Shown here: one piece after another, positions 56,088 through 62,491 of the stretch
How positions within the stretch are numbered: position 1 is the stretch's first letter
How the letters are laid out: every line of letters begins with the position of its first letter
NCBI GenBank assembly: GCA_963747235.1
Contig: CAVVEU010000024.1
Location: 704,001-768,000, forward strand
DNA from: an uncultured Candidatus Rokubacteria bacterium
Lineage (GTDB): Bacteria > Methylomirabilota > Methylomirabilia > Rokubacteriales > CSP1-6
Reading direction: 5' to 3'
DNA length: 64,000 bases
Translations under genes and position numbers: made by a program
The notes under the pieces: model-generated
Told to the model about the DNA's origin: nothing
The model's database searches: none
The model's input: only the letters and a program-made list of their open reading frames with translations

Positions 56088-58238
56088 TTGACCCAACTGC
56101 AGACGTTGATCGAGGAGATCCCCAAGTACCAGCCTGCCGCCAATCTGGATCTCCTGGAGCGCGCCTACCGATTCTCTGAACGCTCCCACCTGGGCCAGCA
56201 GCGCGCCTCCGGCGAGCCCTATCTCTCCCACCCCCTCGAGGTCGCCGGCCTCCTCGTCAACTTCAAGATGGACGTGACCACGGTCACGGCCGGCCTCCTT
56301 CACGACGTCCTGGAAGACACCAAGGCCACCAAGGGGGACCTCCAGCGCGAGTTCGGTACCGAGATCGCCGACCTGGTGGATGGGGTGACCAAGATCGGCA
56401 AGCTGGCCTTCTCCTCCCGGGAAGAGCGCCAGGCCGAGAACTTCCGCAAGATGCTGGTGGCCATGGCGCGCGACCTCCGCGTGCTCATGATCAAGCTGGC
56501 CGACCGGTTGCACAACATGCGGACGCTGCAGTACCTGCCCACGGACAAGGCCCGGAAGATCGCCCAGGAGACCCTCGACATCTACGCCCCCCTGGCCCAC
56601 CGGCTCGGGATGGCCAAGGTCAAGGCGGAGCTGGAGGACCTGGCCCTCCGGGTCCTGCAGCCGGACGACTACCAGGAGCTGATGCGGCGCGTCGCCAAGC
56701 GGCGGCTCGAGCGCGAGGCGGAGATCAACCACCTGATCACGCTGCTCCACGAGAAGCTGGGCGAGGTGGGGATCGGGTCCAAGATCGCGGGCCGTCCGAA
56801 GCACTTCTACTCGATCTGGAAAAAGATGCACGAGGGCGGGCGCGAGTTCGACGAGATCTACGACCTCACCGCGGTCCGCGTCCTGACCAACACCGTCCGC
56901 GACTGCTACGGCGCCCTGGGGGTCGTGCACTCGCTGTGGAAGCCGGTGCCCGGCCGCTTCAAGGACTTCATCGCGATGCCCAAGGTCAACATGTACCAGT
57001 CGCTGCACACGACGGTCATCGGCCCCAAGGGCGACCCGGTGGAGATCCAGATCCGCACCGGGGAGATGCACCGGATCGCCGAGGAAGGCATCGCGGCCCA
57101 CTGGCTCTACAAGGAGAAGCGGAGCGACCGCGACAAGTTCGACGACGCCTTCACCTGGCTGCGCCAGCTCCTGGAGTCGCAGAACGAGACGAGCGACCCC
57201 AAGGAGTTCCTCGACAGCGTCCGCCTCGACCTGTTCCCGGACGAGGTGTATGTCTTCACCCCGCGCGGGGACGTGAAGGCGCTGCCGGAGGGGGCGACGC
57301 CGGTGGACTTCGCCTACACCGTGCACACCGACGTCGGCCACCACTGCGTCGGCGCCAAGGTGAACGGCAAGCTGGTCCCGCTCCGCTACACGCTCCACCA
57401 GGGCGACATCGTCGAGATCGTGACGTCGCCCACCCAGCATCCGAGCCGCGACTGGCTCAAGATCGTCAAGTCGAACCGCGCCCGCGCCAAGATCAACCAG
57501 TGGCTGAAGATCGAGGAGCGCGCTCGTTCGCTCACCCTCGGCCGGGAGTTCTTCGACCGTGAGGCGCGGAAGTACCGGCTGGCGCCCGCCACCCTGCTCG
57601 CTTCCGACGAGATGAAGAAGCTCATCGTCGAGCTGGGGTTCCCGACGGTGGACGACCTGCTGGCCTCGATCGGCTACGGGAAGACCTCGATCCAGCAGGT
57701 GCTGGGCCGGGTGGCTCCGTCTCCGCCCGCCGACAGCGAGGCCCCCGCCGAGACCAAGCCGGCCCGCCCGGCCCGACGGGCCGACGGCCCCGCGGTCCGG
57801 ATCCGGGGCGTGGACGACCTGCTCGTCCGCTTCGGGAAGTGCTGCTCCCCGGTGCCCGGCGACGGCATCGTGGGCTTCATCACGCGGGGGCGCGGCCTGA
57901 CCGTCCACGCCCGCGACTGCCTCACGGTGGTCAAGAATGTGCTGGAGAAGGAGCGGCTGGTGGCGGTGGAGTGGGAGGCGGGGGAGCCGACCAAGCGGCC
58001 GGTGCGGATCGCGGTCTACATCGGGCGGGACCGCCCGGGCTTGCTGGCCGAGATCACCAGCGCCATCTCCTCGCGCCAGGGCAACATCATCAAGGCCGAG
58101 ATCACCGTGACCGAGGATCGCAAGGGCCTCAACCACTTCGTGGTGGAGGTGGACGACCTGCGCCAGCTCCAGGACATCATGCAGGCCATCCGCGAGGTGA
58201 AGGACATCGCCAACGTCGAGCGGGTCCGAGGGGTCTAG
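56088..58238 (+). CDS. relA: Bifunctional (p)ppGpp synthetase/hydrolase (long RSH)
   Basis: HD domain (LLHDVLED), synthetase (YQSLHT, EIQIRT), TGS and ACT domains. Confidence 0.94.
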   Translation: MTQLQTLIEEIPKYQPAANLDLLERAYRFSERSHLGQQRASGEPYLSHPLEVAGLLVNFKMDVTTVTAGLLHDVLEDTKATKGDLQREFGTEIADLVDGVTKIGKLAFSSREERQAENFRKMLVAMARDLRVLMIKLADRLHNMRTLQYLPTDKARKIAQETLDIYAPLAHRLGMAKVKAELEDLALRVLQPDDYQELMRRVAKRRLEREAEINHLITLLHEKLGEVGIGSKIAGRPKHFYSIWKKMHEGGREFDEIYDLTAVRVLTNTVRDCYGALGVVHSLWKPVPGRFKDFIAMPKVNMYQSLHTTVIGPKGDPVEIQIRTGEMHRIAEEGIAAHWLYKEKRSDRDKFDDAFTWLRQLLESQNETSDPKEFLDSVRLDLFPDEVYVFTPRGDVKALPEGATPVDFAYTVHTDVGHHCVGAKVNGKLVPLRYTLHQGDIVEIVTSPTQHPSRDWLKIVKSNRARAKINQWLKIEERARSLTLGREFFDREARKYRLAPATLLASDEMKKLIVELGFPTVDDLLASIGYGKTSIQQVLGRVAPSPPADSEAPAETKPARPARRADGPAVRIRGVDDLLVRFGKCCSPVPGDGIVGFITRGRGLTVHARDCLTVVKNVLEKERLVAVEWEAGEPTKRPVRIAVYIGRDRPGLLAEITSAISSRQGNIIKAEITVTEDRKGLNHFVVEVDDLRQLQDIMQAIREVKDIANVERVRGV

Positions 58239-58258
58239 CACCCCGAGCAGTCGCCCAG

Positions 58259-58627
58259 ATGACCCGCCGGCAGTTCGAAGCGCTCGTCGATTCCGCCCTC
58301 CGCAAGCTGCCCCGCGCCTTCCGCGACAAGCTGGCCAATATCGCCGTCGTGGTCGAGGACTGGGCCGACGACGAGACGCTCGCCGAGATGGGCATCGAGC
58401 CCCCGGACACCCTCTACGGGCTCTACCGGGGCATCGACATCACGCGCCGGGACTCCTCCTACGGCAATGTCCTGCCCGACACCATCCACATCTACCAGGG
58501 GCCCATCGAAGAGGACTGCGAGGATCCGGAGGAAATGGCTGATCTCGTCCGTGACGTCGTGGTCCACGAGGTCGGCCACTACTTCGGGCTCGACGACGAG
58601 ACCATGGATGGAATCGAAGGGCATTGA
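58259..58627 (+). CDS. Zincin-like metallopeptidase family protein
   Basis: LYGLYRG, LPDTIHIYQGPI, HEVGHYFG (HEXXH). Confidence 0.88.
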   Translation: MTRRQFEALVDSALRKLPRAFRDKLANIAVVVEDWADDETLAEMGIEPPDTLYGLYRGIDITRRDSSYGNVLPDTIHIYQGPIEEDCEDPEEMADLVRDVVVHEVGHYFGLDDETMDGIEGH

Positions 58628-58634
58628 ATTTTGC

Positions 58635-58680
58635 TTGACAGGATTTTCATTTGTTCATATGGTTTCAGCATACGCTGAAA
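58635..58680 (+). promoter_or_regulatory. Sigma70 promoter with downstream inverted repeat (candidate operator)
   Basis: TTGACA-17-TATGGT, then TTTCAGC-ATAC-GCTGAAA over the predicted start site. Confidence 0.65.
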
Positions 58681-58712
58681 ATGACGGAACAAGTGAAAGT
58701 GGACGTGAAGGA

Positions 58713-59759
58713 ATGGCGAAAGCAGACGATATCAAGACCCTGGCAGCGCAGCGGGTGCGCGAACTGATGTCAAAAGCCAGCGGGTGGGAGCAATCTGTCG
58801 ACGTGAAGATAGGCGGTCAAACCGCTGATCTGGTTATGAAATTCAAGATGGGCGGTACGCCCCACACCCTCGCAATTGGTGTCACTTCGCTCGGCCAGCC
58901 CCGGCAGATCCGCGAGGCCGTGACCAGGCTGTTGGAGATCCGCAAGGACATGCCGGAAGCGTATCCGGTGGCGGTGTCCCCGTACATCAGCCCCCAGAGC
59001 GCCTCCCTCATCAAGCGGAGCGGGCTGGGGTATCTGGACCTGTCCGGCAATTGCTACCTGAGCTTCGAGAACGTGCTGATCGAGAAAGAGGGCAAGCCGA
59101 ACCTCCGGCCCTCCAACCGGCCCCTGAAGTCCCTGTTCGCCCCCCGGGCCACCCGGGTCGTCAGGGTGATGCTGGTAGACCCCCAGCATGCCTGGCGGCT
59201 CGAAGAGCTGGCCAAGGCCGCGGACGTGAGCCTGGGCCATGCCCACAACGTGGTGAAGCGGCTGGAGGAGCTGTCCTGGGTGGAGCGGAATGGCCAGCAG
59301 CGCATCCAGGTCACCCGGGCGGGGGAGCTGCTGGACGCCTGGGTGGAGGCCTATTCGTATCGGCAGAACGACGTCCAGGCCTACTTCTCCCCGGAGCGGA
59401 TCACCCGCGGGCTGGTGGCGGAGCTGGGTCGGGCGGCCCACGAGGCACACCGGCGGTACGCGTTCACGCTCCATTCGGGCGCCGCGCTGGTGGCCCCGAA
59501 CGTCCGCTTCCCGGCCATTCACTGCTATCTCGAGGGCGACCCCGAGCCGGTGGCCCGGACGCTGGGGCTACGGCCGGGCGAGGGGGAGGGGAACGTCTAC
59601 CTGCTCTCCCCGTACGACCAGGGCGTCTTCTACGCCCCGCTGGCGAAGGGGGGGCTCCCGGTCGTCTGCCTGCCCCAGCTCTACGCCGACCTCTATCACT
59701 ACGAGCGCCGGGGGCGGGATCAGGCCGCCCATCTGCGGCGCGAAGCGATGGGTTACTGA
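58713..59759 (+). CDS. AbiEi-type (type IV TA antitoxin family) winged-HTH protein, no toxin partner adjacent
   Basis: PYISP...GYLDLSGNCYL, SLFAPRATRVVR.L, ELAKAADVSLG wHTH, LLDAW, YAFT..SGA, GNV, QLYADL...RG.DQA motifs typical of AbiEi_2-like proteins (family assigned from memory). Confidence 0.7.
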   Translation: MAKADDIKTLAAQRVRELMSKASGWEQSVDVKIGGQTADLVMKFKMGGTPHTLAIGVTSLGQPRQIREAVTRLLEIRKDMPEAYPVAVSPYISPQSASLIKRSGLGYLDLSGNCYLSFENVLIEKEGKPNLRPSNRPLKSLFAPRATRVVRVMLVDPQHAWRLEELAKAADVSLGHAHNVVKRLEELSWVERNGQQRIQVTRAGELLDAWVEAYSYRQNDVQAYFSPERITRGLVAELGRAAHEAHRRYAFTLHSGAALVAPNVRFPAIHCYLEGDPEPVARTLGLRPGEGEGNVYLLSPYDQGVFYAPLAKGGLPVVCLPQLYADLYHYERRGRDQAAHLRREAMGY

Positions 59760-59789
59760 GTCTCCGACCGGAGGGAGGTGAGACCTCAC

Positions 59790-59861
59790 ATGCCGAAGCG
59801 CAAGAAGGCGGTCAAGAAGGGTGGCAAGAAGAAGGCCACCAAGAAGGGTAAGAGGAAGTAG
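59790..59861 (+). CDS. Lysine-rich microprotein 1 (23 aa, MPKRKKAVKKGGKKKATKKGKRK)
   Basis: Strong GGAGGTGA Shine-Dalgarno 8 nt before ATG; all 12 Lys encoded by AAG; TAG stop. Confidence 0.7.
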   Translation: MPKRKKAVKKGGKKKATKKGKRK

Positions 59862-59905
59862 CGAAGCGTGACGTCATTCCTCAACGAAAGGAGGTGACGA
59901 CCCTC

Positions 59906-59947
59906 ATGGCGAAGAAGAAGAAGGCGGCCAAGAAGAAGAAGAAGTAG
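59906..59947 (+). CDS. Lysine-rich microprotein 2 (13 aa, MAKKKKAAKKKKK)
   Basis: AAGGAGGTGA Shine-Dalgarno 8 nt before ATG; 9 AAG codons; TAG stop. Confidence 0.7.
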   Translation: MAKKKKAAKKKKK

Positions 59948-60020
59948 GTGTGCTGTAGTCGTGCGGTGGGGGGTGGCGGCCTCCCACCGGGACTCATTCT
60001 GAAGCTAAGCGTCAGAGTAC

Positions 60021-60056
60021 GGCGGGGGGTGGCGACACCCCCCGCCCTCTTTTTCT
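60021..60056 (+). terminator. Intrinsic terminator
   Basis: ggcggggggtg/caccccccgcc stem followed by ctctttttct; lies between the microproteins and convergent rpmB. Confidence 0.8.
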
Positions 60057-60062
60057 ACCGAG

Positions 60063-60254
60063 CTAGACGACCTTGACGACCTTGCCGGCCTTCAGGCAGC
60101 GCGTGCAGACGCGCATGCGCTGCACCCGGCCCTTGACCATGGCGCGCATCGAGACCAGATTCGGAAGCCACCGCCTCTTGGTCACGTTGTGGGCGTGGCT
60201 GATCTTGTGACCGACGGCCGGACCCTTCCCGCAGACATCACAGCTTCGAGCCAT
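60063..60254 (-). CDS. rpmB: 50S ribosomal protein L28 (zinc-binding type)
   Basis: [30 protein letters not shown]...VCTRCLKAG. Confidence 0.96.
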
Positions 60255-60343
60255 GCTTGATCCCCTGCCGATCCCTAGATCTGAGTGTGGTTTGCTGGAT
60301 GCGGCGACCTTTTATAGCATGAGGGCTGGCATGAGGCAAACCG

Positions 60344-62491
60344 TTGGCCCCGAGTAAGCCGGCCGGCGCCCCGAGCAGCGCGGGGGCGCCCGCGACGCAT
60401 CCGCTTGCCACGCCGCTCCAGTTCCTCAAGGGCGTCGGGCCCGGGCGGGCCAAGCTCCTCGCCAACCTGGGCCTGCAGACCGTGGAGGACGCGCTCTATT
60501 ACCTCCCGGTCCGCCACGAGGACCGGAGCCAGCTCACCCCGCTCCGGAGCCTCAAGCCCGACGACGTGACCACGGTGACGGGGACCATCCGGGCGATCAG
60601 CCCGCCGCCCCGGAACCGTCCGCGGGTGCCGCTGTCGGTGCTGCTGAGCGACGGCACCGGCTTCCTCACCTGCGTCTGGTTCGGCCAGGCGTATCTCGAG
60701 CGGCTCTTCCAGCGCGGACAGCGTCTCATCGTCCACGGCAAGGCGCAGCGCTACCGCTCGGGGCCGCTGCAGATGAACGTGAAGGACTACGAGGTCGTCG
60801 AGGACGATCCGGCCGAGGGCGCGGGGGATCCGTCCGACGAGACGCTCCACACCGGCCGCCTGGTGCCGGTCTACGGGCTGACCCGCGGCCTCACCGCGCG
60901 GCCGATGCGCTCGCTGATGAAGCGCCTGGTGGACGGCTACGTGGACGGCCTGGATGATCCGCTGCCCGACGCGCTGCGGGCGAAGCACCGGCTCGTGCCG
61001 CTGCCCGAGGCCCTGCGCGCCGGCCACTTCCCGAAGGCGGACAGCGACTACGCGAGCGCGCGGCGGCGGCTGGTCTACGACGAGTTCCTGCTGCTCCAGC
61101 TCGGGCTCGCGATCCGCCGGCAGCGCCAGGGCCGCCAGCCCGGGCTCGCGATGAATCCGCCCGGCGCGCTCGCCCGGCGCCTCCTCGGCTCGCTCCCGTT
61201 CGCGCTGACGGAGGCGCAGGAGCGCGTGTGGCGCGAGATCCGGCAGGACATGGCCGAGCCCTACCCGATGAACCGGCTCATCCAGGGCGACGTGGGCTCG
61301 GGCAAGACGGTGGTGGCCGCCCTCGCGATCCTCACCGCGGTGGAGGCCGGCTACCAGGCCGCCCTCATGGCGCCGACCGAGATCCTGGCCGAGCAGCACC
61401 TCATGACGCTGACCCAGCTCCTCGGGCCGCTCGACGTGGAGGTGGCGCTCCTGACCAACGCGGTGAAGGGCAAGGCGCGCGAGCGGGTGCTCGCGGCCGC
61501 CGCGGCGGGCGAGATCCGCTGCATGATCGGCACGCACGCGCTGGTCCAGGACACCGTGAAGTTTCACCGGCTCGGCCTGGCCGTGGTCGACGAGCAGCAC
61601 CGGTTCGGCGTGCACCAGCGCGCGACGCTCAGGCGCAAGGGCGAGAGCCCGGACGTGCTGGTGATGACCGCCACCCCGATCCCGCGCACGCTCGCGCTGA
61701 CGCTGTACGGCGATCTCGAGGTCTCGGTGATCGACCAGCTCCCGCCCGGGCGCAAGCCGGTGCTCACGCGGGCGCGTCCCGGCTCGGCCCGCGGGAAGAT
61801 CTACCGGTTCCTGCGCGAGCAGGTGAACGACGGCCGCCAGGTCTACGTGGTCTGCCCGCTGGTGGAGGAGTCGGAGGCCCTCGATCTGCAGGCCGCGACC
61901 GAGATGGCGGAGCGCCTGCAGCGCGAGGTCTTCGCCGATCTCGCGATCGGCCTGCTGCACGGGCGCATGCCCTTCGCCGAGAAGGATCGCGTGATGCGCG
62001 AGTTCAAGGCGGGCGCGATCCACATCCTGGTGTCCACCACCGTGATCGAGGTCGGCATCGACGTGCCCAACGCCTCGGTGATGGTGGTGGAGCACGCCGA
62101 GCGCTTCGGCCTCTCCCAGCTCCACCAGCTCCGCGGGCGCGTCGGGCGCGGCCCGTGGAAGAGCTACTGCATCCTGCTCTCGGGCGCCTCGTCGGAGGAC
62201 GCCAAGCGGCGGCTCGAGGCGATGACCGCCACCAATGACGGCTTCAAGATCGCGGAGGCGGACCTGTCGCTCCGGGGGCCGGGCGATTTCTTCGGCACGC
62301 GCCAGTCGGGCCTGCCCGAGTTCCGCGTCGCCGATCTGCTCCGCGACGCGGCGGCGCTCGAAGCGGCGCGGCGCGACGCGGTGGCGCTGATCCGCGAGGA
62401 TCCCAATCTGCTCGCGCCGCCGCACCGGGCCCTGCGGGCCGCGCTGCTCCAGCGCTGGCGGGGCAAGCTCGACCTGGCCGGGGTCGGCTGA
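60344..62491 (+). CDS. recG: ATP-dependent DNA helicase RecG
   Basis: LKGVGP, QGDVGSGKT, MAPTEILAEQH, DEQHRFG, MTATPIPRTL, QLHQLRGRVGRG. Confidence 0.96.
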   Translation: MAPSKPAGAPSSAGAPATHPLATPLQFLKGVGPGRAKLLANLGLQTVEDALYYLPVRHEDRSQLTPLRSLKPDDVTTVTGTIRAISPPPRNRPRVPLSVLLSDGTGFLTCVWFGQAYLERLFQRGQRLIVHGKAQRYRSGPLQMNVKDYEVVEDDPAEGAGDPSDETLHTGRLVPVYGLTRGLTARPMRSLMKRLVDGYVDGLDDPLPDALRAKHRLVPLPEALRAGHFPKADSDYASARRRLVYDEFLLLQLGLAIRRQRQGRQPGLAMNPPGALARRLLGSLPFALTEAQERVWREIRQDMAEPYPMNRLIQGDVGSGKTVVAALAILTAVEAGYQAALMAPTEILAEQHLMTLTQLLGPLDVEVALLTNAVKGKARERVLAAAAAGEIRCMIGTHALVQDTVKFHRLGLAVVDEQHRFGVHQRATLRRKGESPDVLVMTATPIPRTLALTLYGDLEVSVIDQLPPGRKPVLTRARPGSARGKIYRFLREQVNDGRQVYVVCPLVEESEALDLQAATEMAERLQREVFADLAIGLLHGRMPFAEKDRVMREFKAGAIHILVSTTVIEVGIDVPNASVMVVEHAERFGLSQLHQLRGRVGRGPWKSYCILLSGASSEDAKRRLEAMTATNDGFKIAEADLSLRGPGDFFGTRQSGLPEFRVADLLRDAAALEAARRDAVALIREDPNLLAPPHRALRAALLQRWRGKLDLAGVG

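Follow-up and report, generated by a model that had tools for sequence, protein, structure and literature searches.

What does an AbiEi-family regulator control when the toxin that accompanies its distant homologues is missing? The question is raised by positions 58635..60056 of a 64,000-nucleotide (nt) stretch of DNA, hereafter the window, from a genome of 5.57 Mb and 70.9% G+C; the group was identified as Candidatus Rokubacteria/Methylomirabilota from record titles. Here the regulator gene is followed by two short open reading frames (sORFs) for polylysine peptides and by an RNA hairpin. Our comparison indicates that the locus has been inherited vertically in the Rokubacteria-type order, probably as a single operon. 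The reading that we favor, at somewhat less than even confidence, is that an autoregulated operon produces oligolysine polycations that would act in trans by binding RNA or ribosomes. We favor it because of the selection on peptide charge, the conserved non-Lys residues, the dosage-like tandem duplication of the sORFs, their top-tier Shine–Dalgarno (SD) sequences and the lack of a downstream gene to control.

Inspection of the sequence and of the open reading frame (ORF) listing over 58400-60400 bore out the anatomy proposed in an earlier annotation of this stretch (the original prediction), which comprised a promoter, an inverted repeat, a regulator gene, two sORFs, a hairpin and a terminator. 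None of the features listed below is due to chance.

58635..58663, plus strand: sigma-70-type promoter with a T-run in front; TTGACA at 58635-58640, 17-nt spacer, TATGGT at 58658-58663.
58645..58698, no strand assigned: operator-like half-site set; TTTCA at 58645-58649, TTTCAGC at 58663-58669, GCTGAAA at 58674-58680, TGAAA at 58694-58698.
58713..59759, plus strand: gene for a 348-amino-acid (aa) AbiEi-family protein; a 348-codon ORF with three predicted domains.
59774..59781, plus strand: SD GGAGGTGA of sORF1, 8 nt from the ATG and kept in the genus-level alignment.
59790..59861, plus strand: sORF1, a 23-aa polybasic microprotein, MPKRKKAVKKGGKKKATKKGKRK, conserved with synonymous changes.
59890..59897, plus strand: SD GGAGGTGA of sORF2, 8 nt from the ATG.
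59906..59947, plus strand: sORF2, a 13-aa polylysine microprotein, MAKKKKAAKKKKK; a MAKKK(K)A(A/T)KKKK(K)-type sORF is found in 41/41 orthologous loci.
59964..59989, plus strand: RNA hairpin (predicted fold), with an 11-base-pair (bp) stem including two G·U pairs and a GGCG loop, 16 nt past the sORF2 stop.
60021..60056, plus strand: intrinsic terminator, with an 11-bp G+C stem (60021-60046) followed by the T-run CTCTTTTTCT.

Conservation was assessed in three sets of loci. L001–L041 were picked by regulator homology only and form the sole set that is unbiased for both the sORFs and the hairpin; these 41 loci were drawn from 175 genomes of the order with a regulator match, L029 being from an unpublished genome that no claim depends on. 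L054–L133 were ascertained through the sORF pattern, and L170–L249 through the hairpin. Counts over relatives are not counts of independent events.

In the unbiased set, SD-led polylysine sORFs are present in 41/41 loci, always within ~230 nt of the regulator stop. Two ATG-led sORFs are found in 34 of these loci and one in the remaining 7, three of which add a GTG- or TTG-led sORF. The distance from SD to ATG is 5–9 nt across the orthologous loci. The original prediction had named a lack of conservation of the sORFs or their SDs in relatives as a ground for abandoning it; both turned out to be conserved, and each sORF indeed has its own GGAGGTGA at the same 8-nt spacing. The 16S rRNA of the organism itself ends in ...GGATCACCTCCTTTCT, so that both SDs are perfect 8-nt complements of it. 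Such signals are scarce, as GGAGGTGA with an ATG or GTG 5–9 nt later occurs only 46 times in the 5.57-Mb genome, and SD-led polylysine ORFs of 8–50 aa number three in the whole genome, two of them being sORF1 and sORF2. In the genus-level alignment, SDs, start codons and ORFs are constant features, the sequence of the SD-to-ATG spacers differs between loci, and the stretch from sORF1 to the second SD varies widely in both length and sequence. Lys and Arg make up 16/23 residues of sORF1 and 9/13 of sORF2. The exact 23-aa peptide of sORF1 exists as a nameless JGI/IMG gene call on 11 contigs. A GTG start of sORF1 at 59778 was rejected, as it lies inside the SD itself and the 27-aa form is absent from the protein collection in which the 23-aa form is present.

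The codon usage of the sORFs fits selection for peptide charge. Over 50 distinct sORF sequences with 794 codons, the encoded residues are K 479, A 120, R 66, G 61, T 34, V 13 and P 10, and the 66 Arg codons are split into 47 CGN and 19 AGR. GAG, a single transition away from AAG, is the commonest codon of the neighboring genes (153 occurrences) and occurs 0 times in the sORFs. No Glu, Gln, Asn or Met was found within the SD-led peptides of these 50 sequences; the four acidic residues in the tally all lie in three ATG-extended variants, 5' of the SD-led start. Within the genus, sORF1 shows synonymous changes (CGC/CGT, GCG/GCC, GGT/GGC, AAG/AAA and AGG/CGG), and its replacements are Lys to Arg only. 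The CGN Arg codons, the absence of GAG and the synonymous changes together point to selection for a positively charged peptide, not for AAG-repeat RNA or for Lys codons as such. The original prediction had also stressed that only AAG is used for Lys. This is true of both sORFs but is not distinctive, because it matches the codon bias of the genome (AAG 106 vs AAA 8 in five neighboring genes; AAG 442 vs AAA 37 in the sORFs of relatives), and we therefore give it no weight as a signal.

The same data bear on the view that the sORFs are not translated and represent a purine-rich (AAG)n RNA or DNA element with G-rich motifs, for example a protein-binding 3' untranslated region or a slippage-prone microsatellite. 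AAG repeats do change length by triplet slippage, so frame-preserving insertions and deletions by themselves are no evidence of coding. However, a perfect SD, fixed spacing, an ATG and a stop right after the Lys run recur in every locus (91/92 across phyla), CGN Arg codons interrupt the purine run, GAG is avoided altogether, and a control search with the reversed pattern found 0 matches in each of the listed genomes out of 251 searched; we regard an untranslated element as very improbable. SD, start, stop, Arg-for-Lys replacement and the lack of acidic residues provide strong comparative evidence that polylysine peptides down to 12–13 residues are real gene products selected for their charge.

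The hairpin downstream of sORF2 is the most conserved part of the unit, with a sequence that is nearly invariant over the whole order. It is present in 41/41 unbiased loci, as the exact 26-mer in 29 and with the exact 24-nt core in 31; its flanks are unconserved and the neighboring proteins fall to ~60% identity. Among its variants, 15/16 retain 9–11 of the 11 pairs, with breaks mostly at the terminal pair, and the sixteenth, with 6 of 11 pairs, appears to be misaligned through an indel. Among the substitutions are G-C to G·U, G·U to A-U and a single double change from U-A to C-G. Conservation of the two G·U pairs shows that it is the plus-strand RNA that is under constraint. The genome contains no second copy of the motif, and an Rfam search of 58400-60500 gave 0 matches at E <= 1. 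A search for the 24-nt core in 185,579 species genomes returned 91 stretches, one per record, from Rokubacteria/Methylomirabilota and a few records with odd bin labels. The pairing of sORF and hairpin is obligate: in 80/80 fetched stretches of these 91, an SD-led polylysine sORF ends 11–23 nt upstream on the same strand, with two sORFs in 72 loci and one in 8. The hairpin would thus sit just past a ribosome terminating on the last sORF. So little sequence change suggests that a specific factor, perhaps the peptide itself, recognizes it. The stem of the terminator is conserved within the genus as well, and GGGGGGTGGCG is common to the terminator and the upstream hairpin.

Several other roles of the hairpin were considered. 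It is not an evident mimic of rRNA, as no match with up to 6 substitutions was found in the 12 kb around the 16S gene, and a repetitive extragenic palindrome is rejected because the genome has a single copy of it. A second operator for the regulator is unlikely, as the hairpin contains no TTTCA half-site and a clade with a divergent hairpin keeps the promoter repeat. The spacing of 17–20 nt from the last Lys codons is wrong for a –1 frameshift stimulator.

Six orthologous loci of ~54% identity (L071, L085, L093, L104, L108 and L119) are without the invariant hairpin. This clade has its own clade-conserved hairpin, with a 9-bp stem and an 11-nt loop, at the same distance past the second sORF, and its promoter inverted repeat is unchanged; L062 carries a perfect-stem version. 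In addition, a complete Rokubacteria-type locus of ~66–68% G+C is found in records binned as Acidoferrum, Nitrosotalea, Deferrimicrobiaceae, Verrucomicrobiia, Limnocylindria and Nitrosocosmicus (L094/L188, L101/L191, L091/L186, L109/L195, L219, L225, L240 and L246), which are probably mis-binned contigs.

We next consider the regulator. Its assignment to the AbiEi family in the original prediction holds: PF09952 (Pfam AbiEi_2) matches aa 199-342 with 28.1 bits against a cut-off of 21, and NCBI gives close relatives the name 'type IV toxin-antitoxin system AbiEi family antitoxin'. IclR/MarR helix-turn-helix (HTH) matches at aa 159-193 are sub-threshold. An AlphaFold model built from the alignment of 41 orthologues (predicted local distance difference test score, pLDDT, 82.5) predicts three domains. 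Residues 1–128 resemble PD-(D/E)xK nucleases (AF1548, 1y88, Z 10.1; also the nuclease domains of PaqCI, Can2/Cdn1 and NucS), residues 132–214 form a winged HTH (MarR/CRP-type folds, Z 9–10), and residues 228–348 adopt a nucleotidyltransferase (NTase)-like fold (4xje, Z 10.6). The modeled C-terminal domain (residues 233–348) aligns with the AbiEi protein of S. agalactiae (6y8q) with Z 8.6 and a root-mean-square deviation of 3.2 over 103 residues, so that the winged HTH and AbiEi C-terminal domain expected of an AbiEi antitoxin both appear to be in place. Searching the PDB sequences with a profile made from the regulator alignment gave one meaningless match (E 0.31). In the N-terminal domain (window 58713-59100), Asp109 is invariant and Lys125/Glu126 nearly so among the 41 orthologues. 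Judged from the model, this domain may be either an active nuclease or a sensor of a ligand or nucleic acid.

The regulator is single-copy in its own genome. It is present in 59/61 relatives and in 175/182 genomes of the five families of the order, and in 13/68 genomes of the other families of the class; these tallies, and the pattern scan of 251 phylum genomes described below, include the unpublished genomes G029, G135 and G243, on which no claim depends. The syntenic block relA-zincin-X-(rpmB)-recG, in which X is the regulator, is retained across the orthologues. In the window, a Zincin_1 gene and relA lie upstream, relA being two genes away, rpmB is convergent at 60063-60254, and recG lies downstream.

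Outside the order, matches to the regulator have only 32–41% identity. An ORF of 250–295 aa follows immediately 3' of these homologues, and it matches AbiEii (PF08843) or NTP_transf_8 (PF12281) in 6/8 cases; one of the two cases without a toxin-family match is truncated by the end of its contig. No Lys-rich sORF was found beside any of these outside homologues. Conversely, no AbiEii-type ORF lies beside the orthologues in any of the 41 loci, where a routine presence of AbiEii would have spoken for simple toxin loss in the window alone; between 59759 and rpmB the window holds only the sORFs, and the single AbiEii match of the genome sits on a different contig. These comparisons indicate that the toxin partner of this AbiEi-family gene disappeared at the base of the order and that the regulator itself was kept. 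As originally proposed, polycationic sORFs occupy the toxin position within a housekeeping block (relA ... rpmB).

The locus therefore resembles type IV AbiEi/AbiEii toxin–antitoxin (TA) systems in the AbiEi_2 match, the predicted winged HTH and AbiEi-like C-terminal domain, the inverted repeat overlapping the promoter, and the NTase toxin that still lies downstream of the distant homologues. It differs from them in that two polylysine sORFs and a hairpin replace the toxin, in the extra PD-(D/E)xK-like N-terminal domain, and in that the Rokubacteria gene belongs to the core of a whole order and sits in a housekeeping block, unlike a patchy mobile module.

The region upstream of the regulator suggests autoregulation. 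Over 58200-60500, TTGACA-17-TATGGT is the single promoter-like site (mean in shuffled sequences 0.3), and an order-wide alignment of the orthologous upstream regions keeps the T-run, TTGACA and a TAxxGT –10 hexamer. An inverted repeat, TTTCAGC-ATAC-GCTGAAA, at 58663-58680 touches the –10 hexamer; its arms are unchanged across the order and its 4-nt spacer is variable. The TTTCA inside the promoter spacer and CAAGTGAAA just 5' of the start codon are also kept in this alignment, which shows no SD at the regulator gene to match those of the sORFs. The four TTTCA/TGAAA half-sites fall within ~55 bp, the genome-wide density being 0.18 per kb, and the genome holds just one copy of the inverted repeat. 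With its left arm directly at the –10 hexamer, the repeat should contain the transcription start, which favors a DNA operator over a 5' RNA hairpin. The regulator is most likely the protein that binds these half-sites. In the simplest reading of the sequence, it would be a dedicated autoregulator, the peptides being the only other products of the operon. This agrees with PMC7319586, in which AbiEi proteins are reported to autoregulate through promoter inverted repeats; the conserved, genome-unique repeat and extra half-sites that overlap the promoter here would suit such control. The notion of a domesticated regulator, put forward in the original prediction, fits a single-copy, syntenic gene that is order-wide and has a conserved operator-like promoter, and the locus offers a clean case, across an entire order, of a TA regulator recruited to housekeeping after toxin loss.

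The same wiring could in principle serve a new peptide-effector TA or defense module, in which inactivation of the AbiEi-type repressor would release a burst of polycations that condense nucleic acids or block ribosomes, leading to dormancy or abortive infection. The sORFs lie exactly where the homologues have an AbiEii/NTase toxin, a strong promoter and perfect SDs under an apparent autorepressor are typical of TA wiring, and the model suggests that the AbiEi-like C-terminal domain of the regulator has been retained. Against this stand a core single-copy gene of the whole order, in a fixed housekeeping neighborhood and without mobile-element context. Vertical inheritance and a stand-alone third polylysine gene in the genome, whose promoter looks unregulated and lacks a TTTCA operator, also argue against a mobile defense module. 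Furthermore, similar sORFs are found between essential genes in very small genomes of the candidate phyla radiation (CPR), for which a housekeeping product fits better than a poison. We consider a TA or defense module improbable.

The third polylysine gene, MAKKKAAKKKKKK, lies at ~393032 on the minus strand of contig C8 of G000 (~3640-3490, minus, in L052). It has its own TTGACA-17-TAGAGT promoter and SD, and is located ~60 nt 5' of a co-oriented EamA-family transporter gene and 3' of a phosphoribosyltransferase-like gene. The same sORF–EamA order is seen in L059, L074 and L092, and a phosphoribosyltransferase neighbor in L110. It is possible that this gene encodes a leader peptide of the EamA transporter. 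A small hairpin follows right after its stop.

The strict SD-plus-polylysine pattern was found in 115/251 genomes of the phylum, including 97/158 of family f1, 15/21 of f4 and 1/1 of f2, and 1/68 outside the order. Over all species genomes, it returned at least 115 stretches. Among the 80 that were fetched, 41 are the orthologous locus and 39 lie elsewhere, in Planctomycetota, Patescibacteria, Omnitrophota, Bdellovibrionales, Eisenbacteria, DPANN-labelled bins and others. ORFs of 10–47 aa composed of Lys, Ala and Thr account for 91/92 pattern matches. A literature search by title and abstract found no paper on genomic polylysine sORFs in prokaryotes.

The main rival of our reading is a cis-acting translational sensor, in which the effect would come from translation itself, of consecutive Lys codons or of a polybasic nascent chain, and not from the released peptide. 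By way of the hairpin and terminator, ribosome speed or stalling on the sORFs would determine how stable the operon mRNA is, where it ends, or how much antisense read-through into rpmB occurs. The order of sORF, hairpin, second hairpin and U-run resembles a leader-peptide attenuator, the distance from stop to hairpin is held at 11–23 nt, and relA is encoded two genes upstream. Folding predicts two stable hairpins, and in the window, where alone this was read, the 3' arm of the first can pair with the 5' arm of the terminator at 9 of 10 positions. There is also a precedent in the abrB leader of B. subtilis, where a 7-codon AAG-containing leader peptide exerts control through MnmE-dependent decoding (PMC13733827). 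In common with such attenuators, the present unit has a short ORF rich in one codon, a strong SD, and then a hairpin and a terminator. Moreover, polylysine sORFs elsewhere lie directly 5' of co-oriented genes such as those for EamA and SecA: for the 37 non-orthologous loci, the next ORF is co-oriented in 24 and convergent in 13, ORF calls being rough in the G+C-rich loci. This would suit a leader role in cis and weighs against our own reading.

The present sORFs nevertheless differ from leader peptides in several respects. They stand at the 3' end of their operon and no co-oriented gene follows them; rpmB is convergent in the window and in all syntenic loci, and the unit ends in a terminator facing it, so there is no target in cis. 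The last sORF ends 16 nt before the first arm of the hairpin and does not overlap it. A ribosome stalled on the Lys codons or at the stop would leave both hairpins free, so that a classical attenuation geometry would terminate either way; classical attenuation was rejected on this account. Arg replaces Lys 66 times, mostly as CGN, and Glu, Gln, Asn and Met are absent, which argues against pure sensing of Lys-tRNA, although it is still compatible with an effect of nascent-chain charge. The non-Lys residues of sORF1 are kept within the genus through synonymous changes and, together with the Arg substitutions, point to selection on the peptide, and two tandem, often near-identical sORFs look like gene dosage. 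On balance, we hold a sensor in cis to be unlikely.

By comparison, peptides that act in trans would account for the unit as follows. A strong sigma-70-type promoter overlapped by four half-sites would be bound by the first product of the operon, the AbiEi-family winged-helix protein, which, without an NTase toxin partner, would act as a dedicated autoregulator. One transcript would carry the regulator and both polylysine sORFs, and the peptides would be made in large excess over the regulator, because the SDs of the sORFs are perfect and the regulator has none comparable. The peptides, of 12–24 residues with ~70–80% Lys/Arg and no acidic or bulky residues, would serve as genetically encoded polycations. 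Their target would be RNA, most plausibly the ribosome or rRNA, as for bS22, eL41 and bL37, or else nucleic acid generally. The original prediction had put forward histone-H1/protamine-like or ribosome-binding peptides, a TA or defense module and Lys-tRNA sensing as candidate functions; of these, codon usage speaks for a peptide in which charge counts, more than for sensing of Lys codons only. The invariant hairpin would be a 3' element of the mRNA that is read by a specific factor, and it may be a feedback site for free peptide.

The nearest precedents for the polylysine peptides, by analogy, would be the polybasic ribosomal microproteins bS22 (with its analogues eL41 and mS38), bL37 and bL38, which are likewise tiny, very basic and often unannotated and are strongly expressed from short ORFs, as is predicted for the sORFs here. 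As described, bS22 has about 30 aa with 61% Lys/Arg, is unannotated in Borrelia and fills a conserved pocket of 16S rRNA, and its authors expect more such proteins in other bacteria (PMC10618245). Both sORF1 and sORF2 are, like bS22, very small with more than 60% Lys/Arg. The sORF peptides differ from this group in consisting almost only of Lys, Ala, Thr and Gly, and the 12–13-residue forms are far shorter than the ribosomal proteins known so far. A PF08213-type bS22 was not found in the host genome, which is weak evidence of absence because the genome is only 88% complete.

Several points weigh against the trans-acting reading. sORF1 has no match to PF08213/COX24_C or to any other Pfam or NCBIfam family at E <= 1, and sORF2 is too short to scan. 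Known polybasic ribosomal microproteins have hydrophobic positions and the polylysine peptides have none, and we know of no 13-residue ribosomal protein. A stabilizing or terminating 3' element would explain the position of the hairpin, though not the invariance of its sequence. Finally, the nuclease-like N-terminal domain predicted for the regulator plays no part in the proposed working.

A bolder version of the trans-acting reading, which we put forward tentatively and deem unlikely as a whole, is a homeostat of Rokubacteria in which the AbiEi antitoxin sets transcription through its operator and free peptide feeds back on the hairpin, one ribosome footprint past its own stop codon; oligolysines of 10–47 residues would then be a widespread and largely undescribed class of prokaryotic microproteins acting as tunable intracellular polycations. 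If true, this would be a new regulatory logic that combines a TA-derived repressor, microproteins and a cognate RNA element. Pairs of an arginine-rich peptide and an RNA hairpin are known from phage lambda N/boxB and HIV Tat/TAR. The resemblance, which is pure analogy, lies in a short basic peptide encoded beside a small, sequence-constrained hairpin upstream of a terminator; unlike those cases, the peptides here are rich in Lys rather than Arg, and no antitermination target lies downstream. Annotation thresholds exclude polylysine genes, although similar ones are found in many phyla, minimal CPR genomes among them; their function could therefore be of general importance. Candidate roles are ribosome or RNA binding, a polyamine-like role and translational sensing.

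Outside the orthologous locus, the genomic contexts of polylysine sORFs are lineage-specific. In Patescibacteria (CPR), a co-oriented MAKKKKKKKK-type sORF of 10–14 codons lies between serS and secA (L058, L080, L089, L095, L096, L100 and L105, plus L061), and its position directly 5' of secA is conserved in several CPR genomes. In Planctomycetota (L067, L072, L076, L078, L103, L112, L121, L125 and L130), polylysine sORFs of 19–39 aa occupy the gap between a nadD-like gene of the cytidylyltransferase fold and a gene for an ornithine/diaminopimelate/arginine decarboxylase (lysine or polyamine synthesis); in the six loci with both neighbors identified, the sORF lies 290–580 nt upstream of the co-oriented decarboxylase gene. 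A 19-codon Lys/Glu-rich sORF, MAKGRSMKKEKKKPKKEKK, with the SD GGGAGGTGA, is located at ~55090 on the plus strand of contig C4 of G000 (3091-3150 in L053). It overlaps the end of the upstream gene and lies just 5' of a gene whose product begins, with a Walker A motif, like an ABC-F-type ATPase; leader peptides often control ABC-F genes. In Bdellovibrionales and a Moraniibacteriota bin, the polylysine sORF is convergent with prmC, and other polylysine sORFs adjoin rsfS, mnmE or smc.

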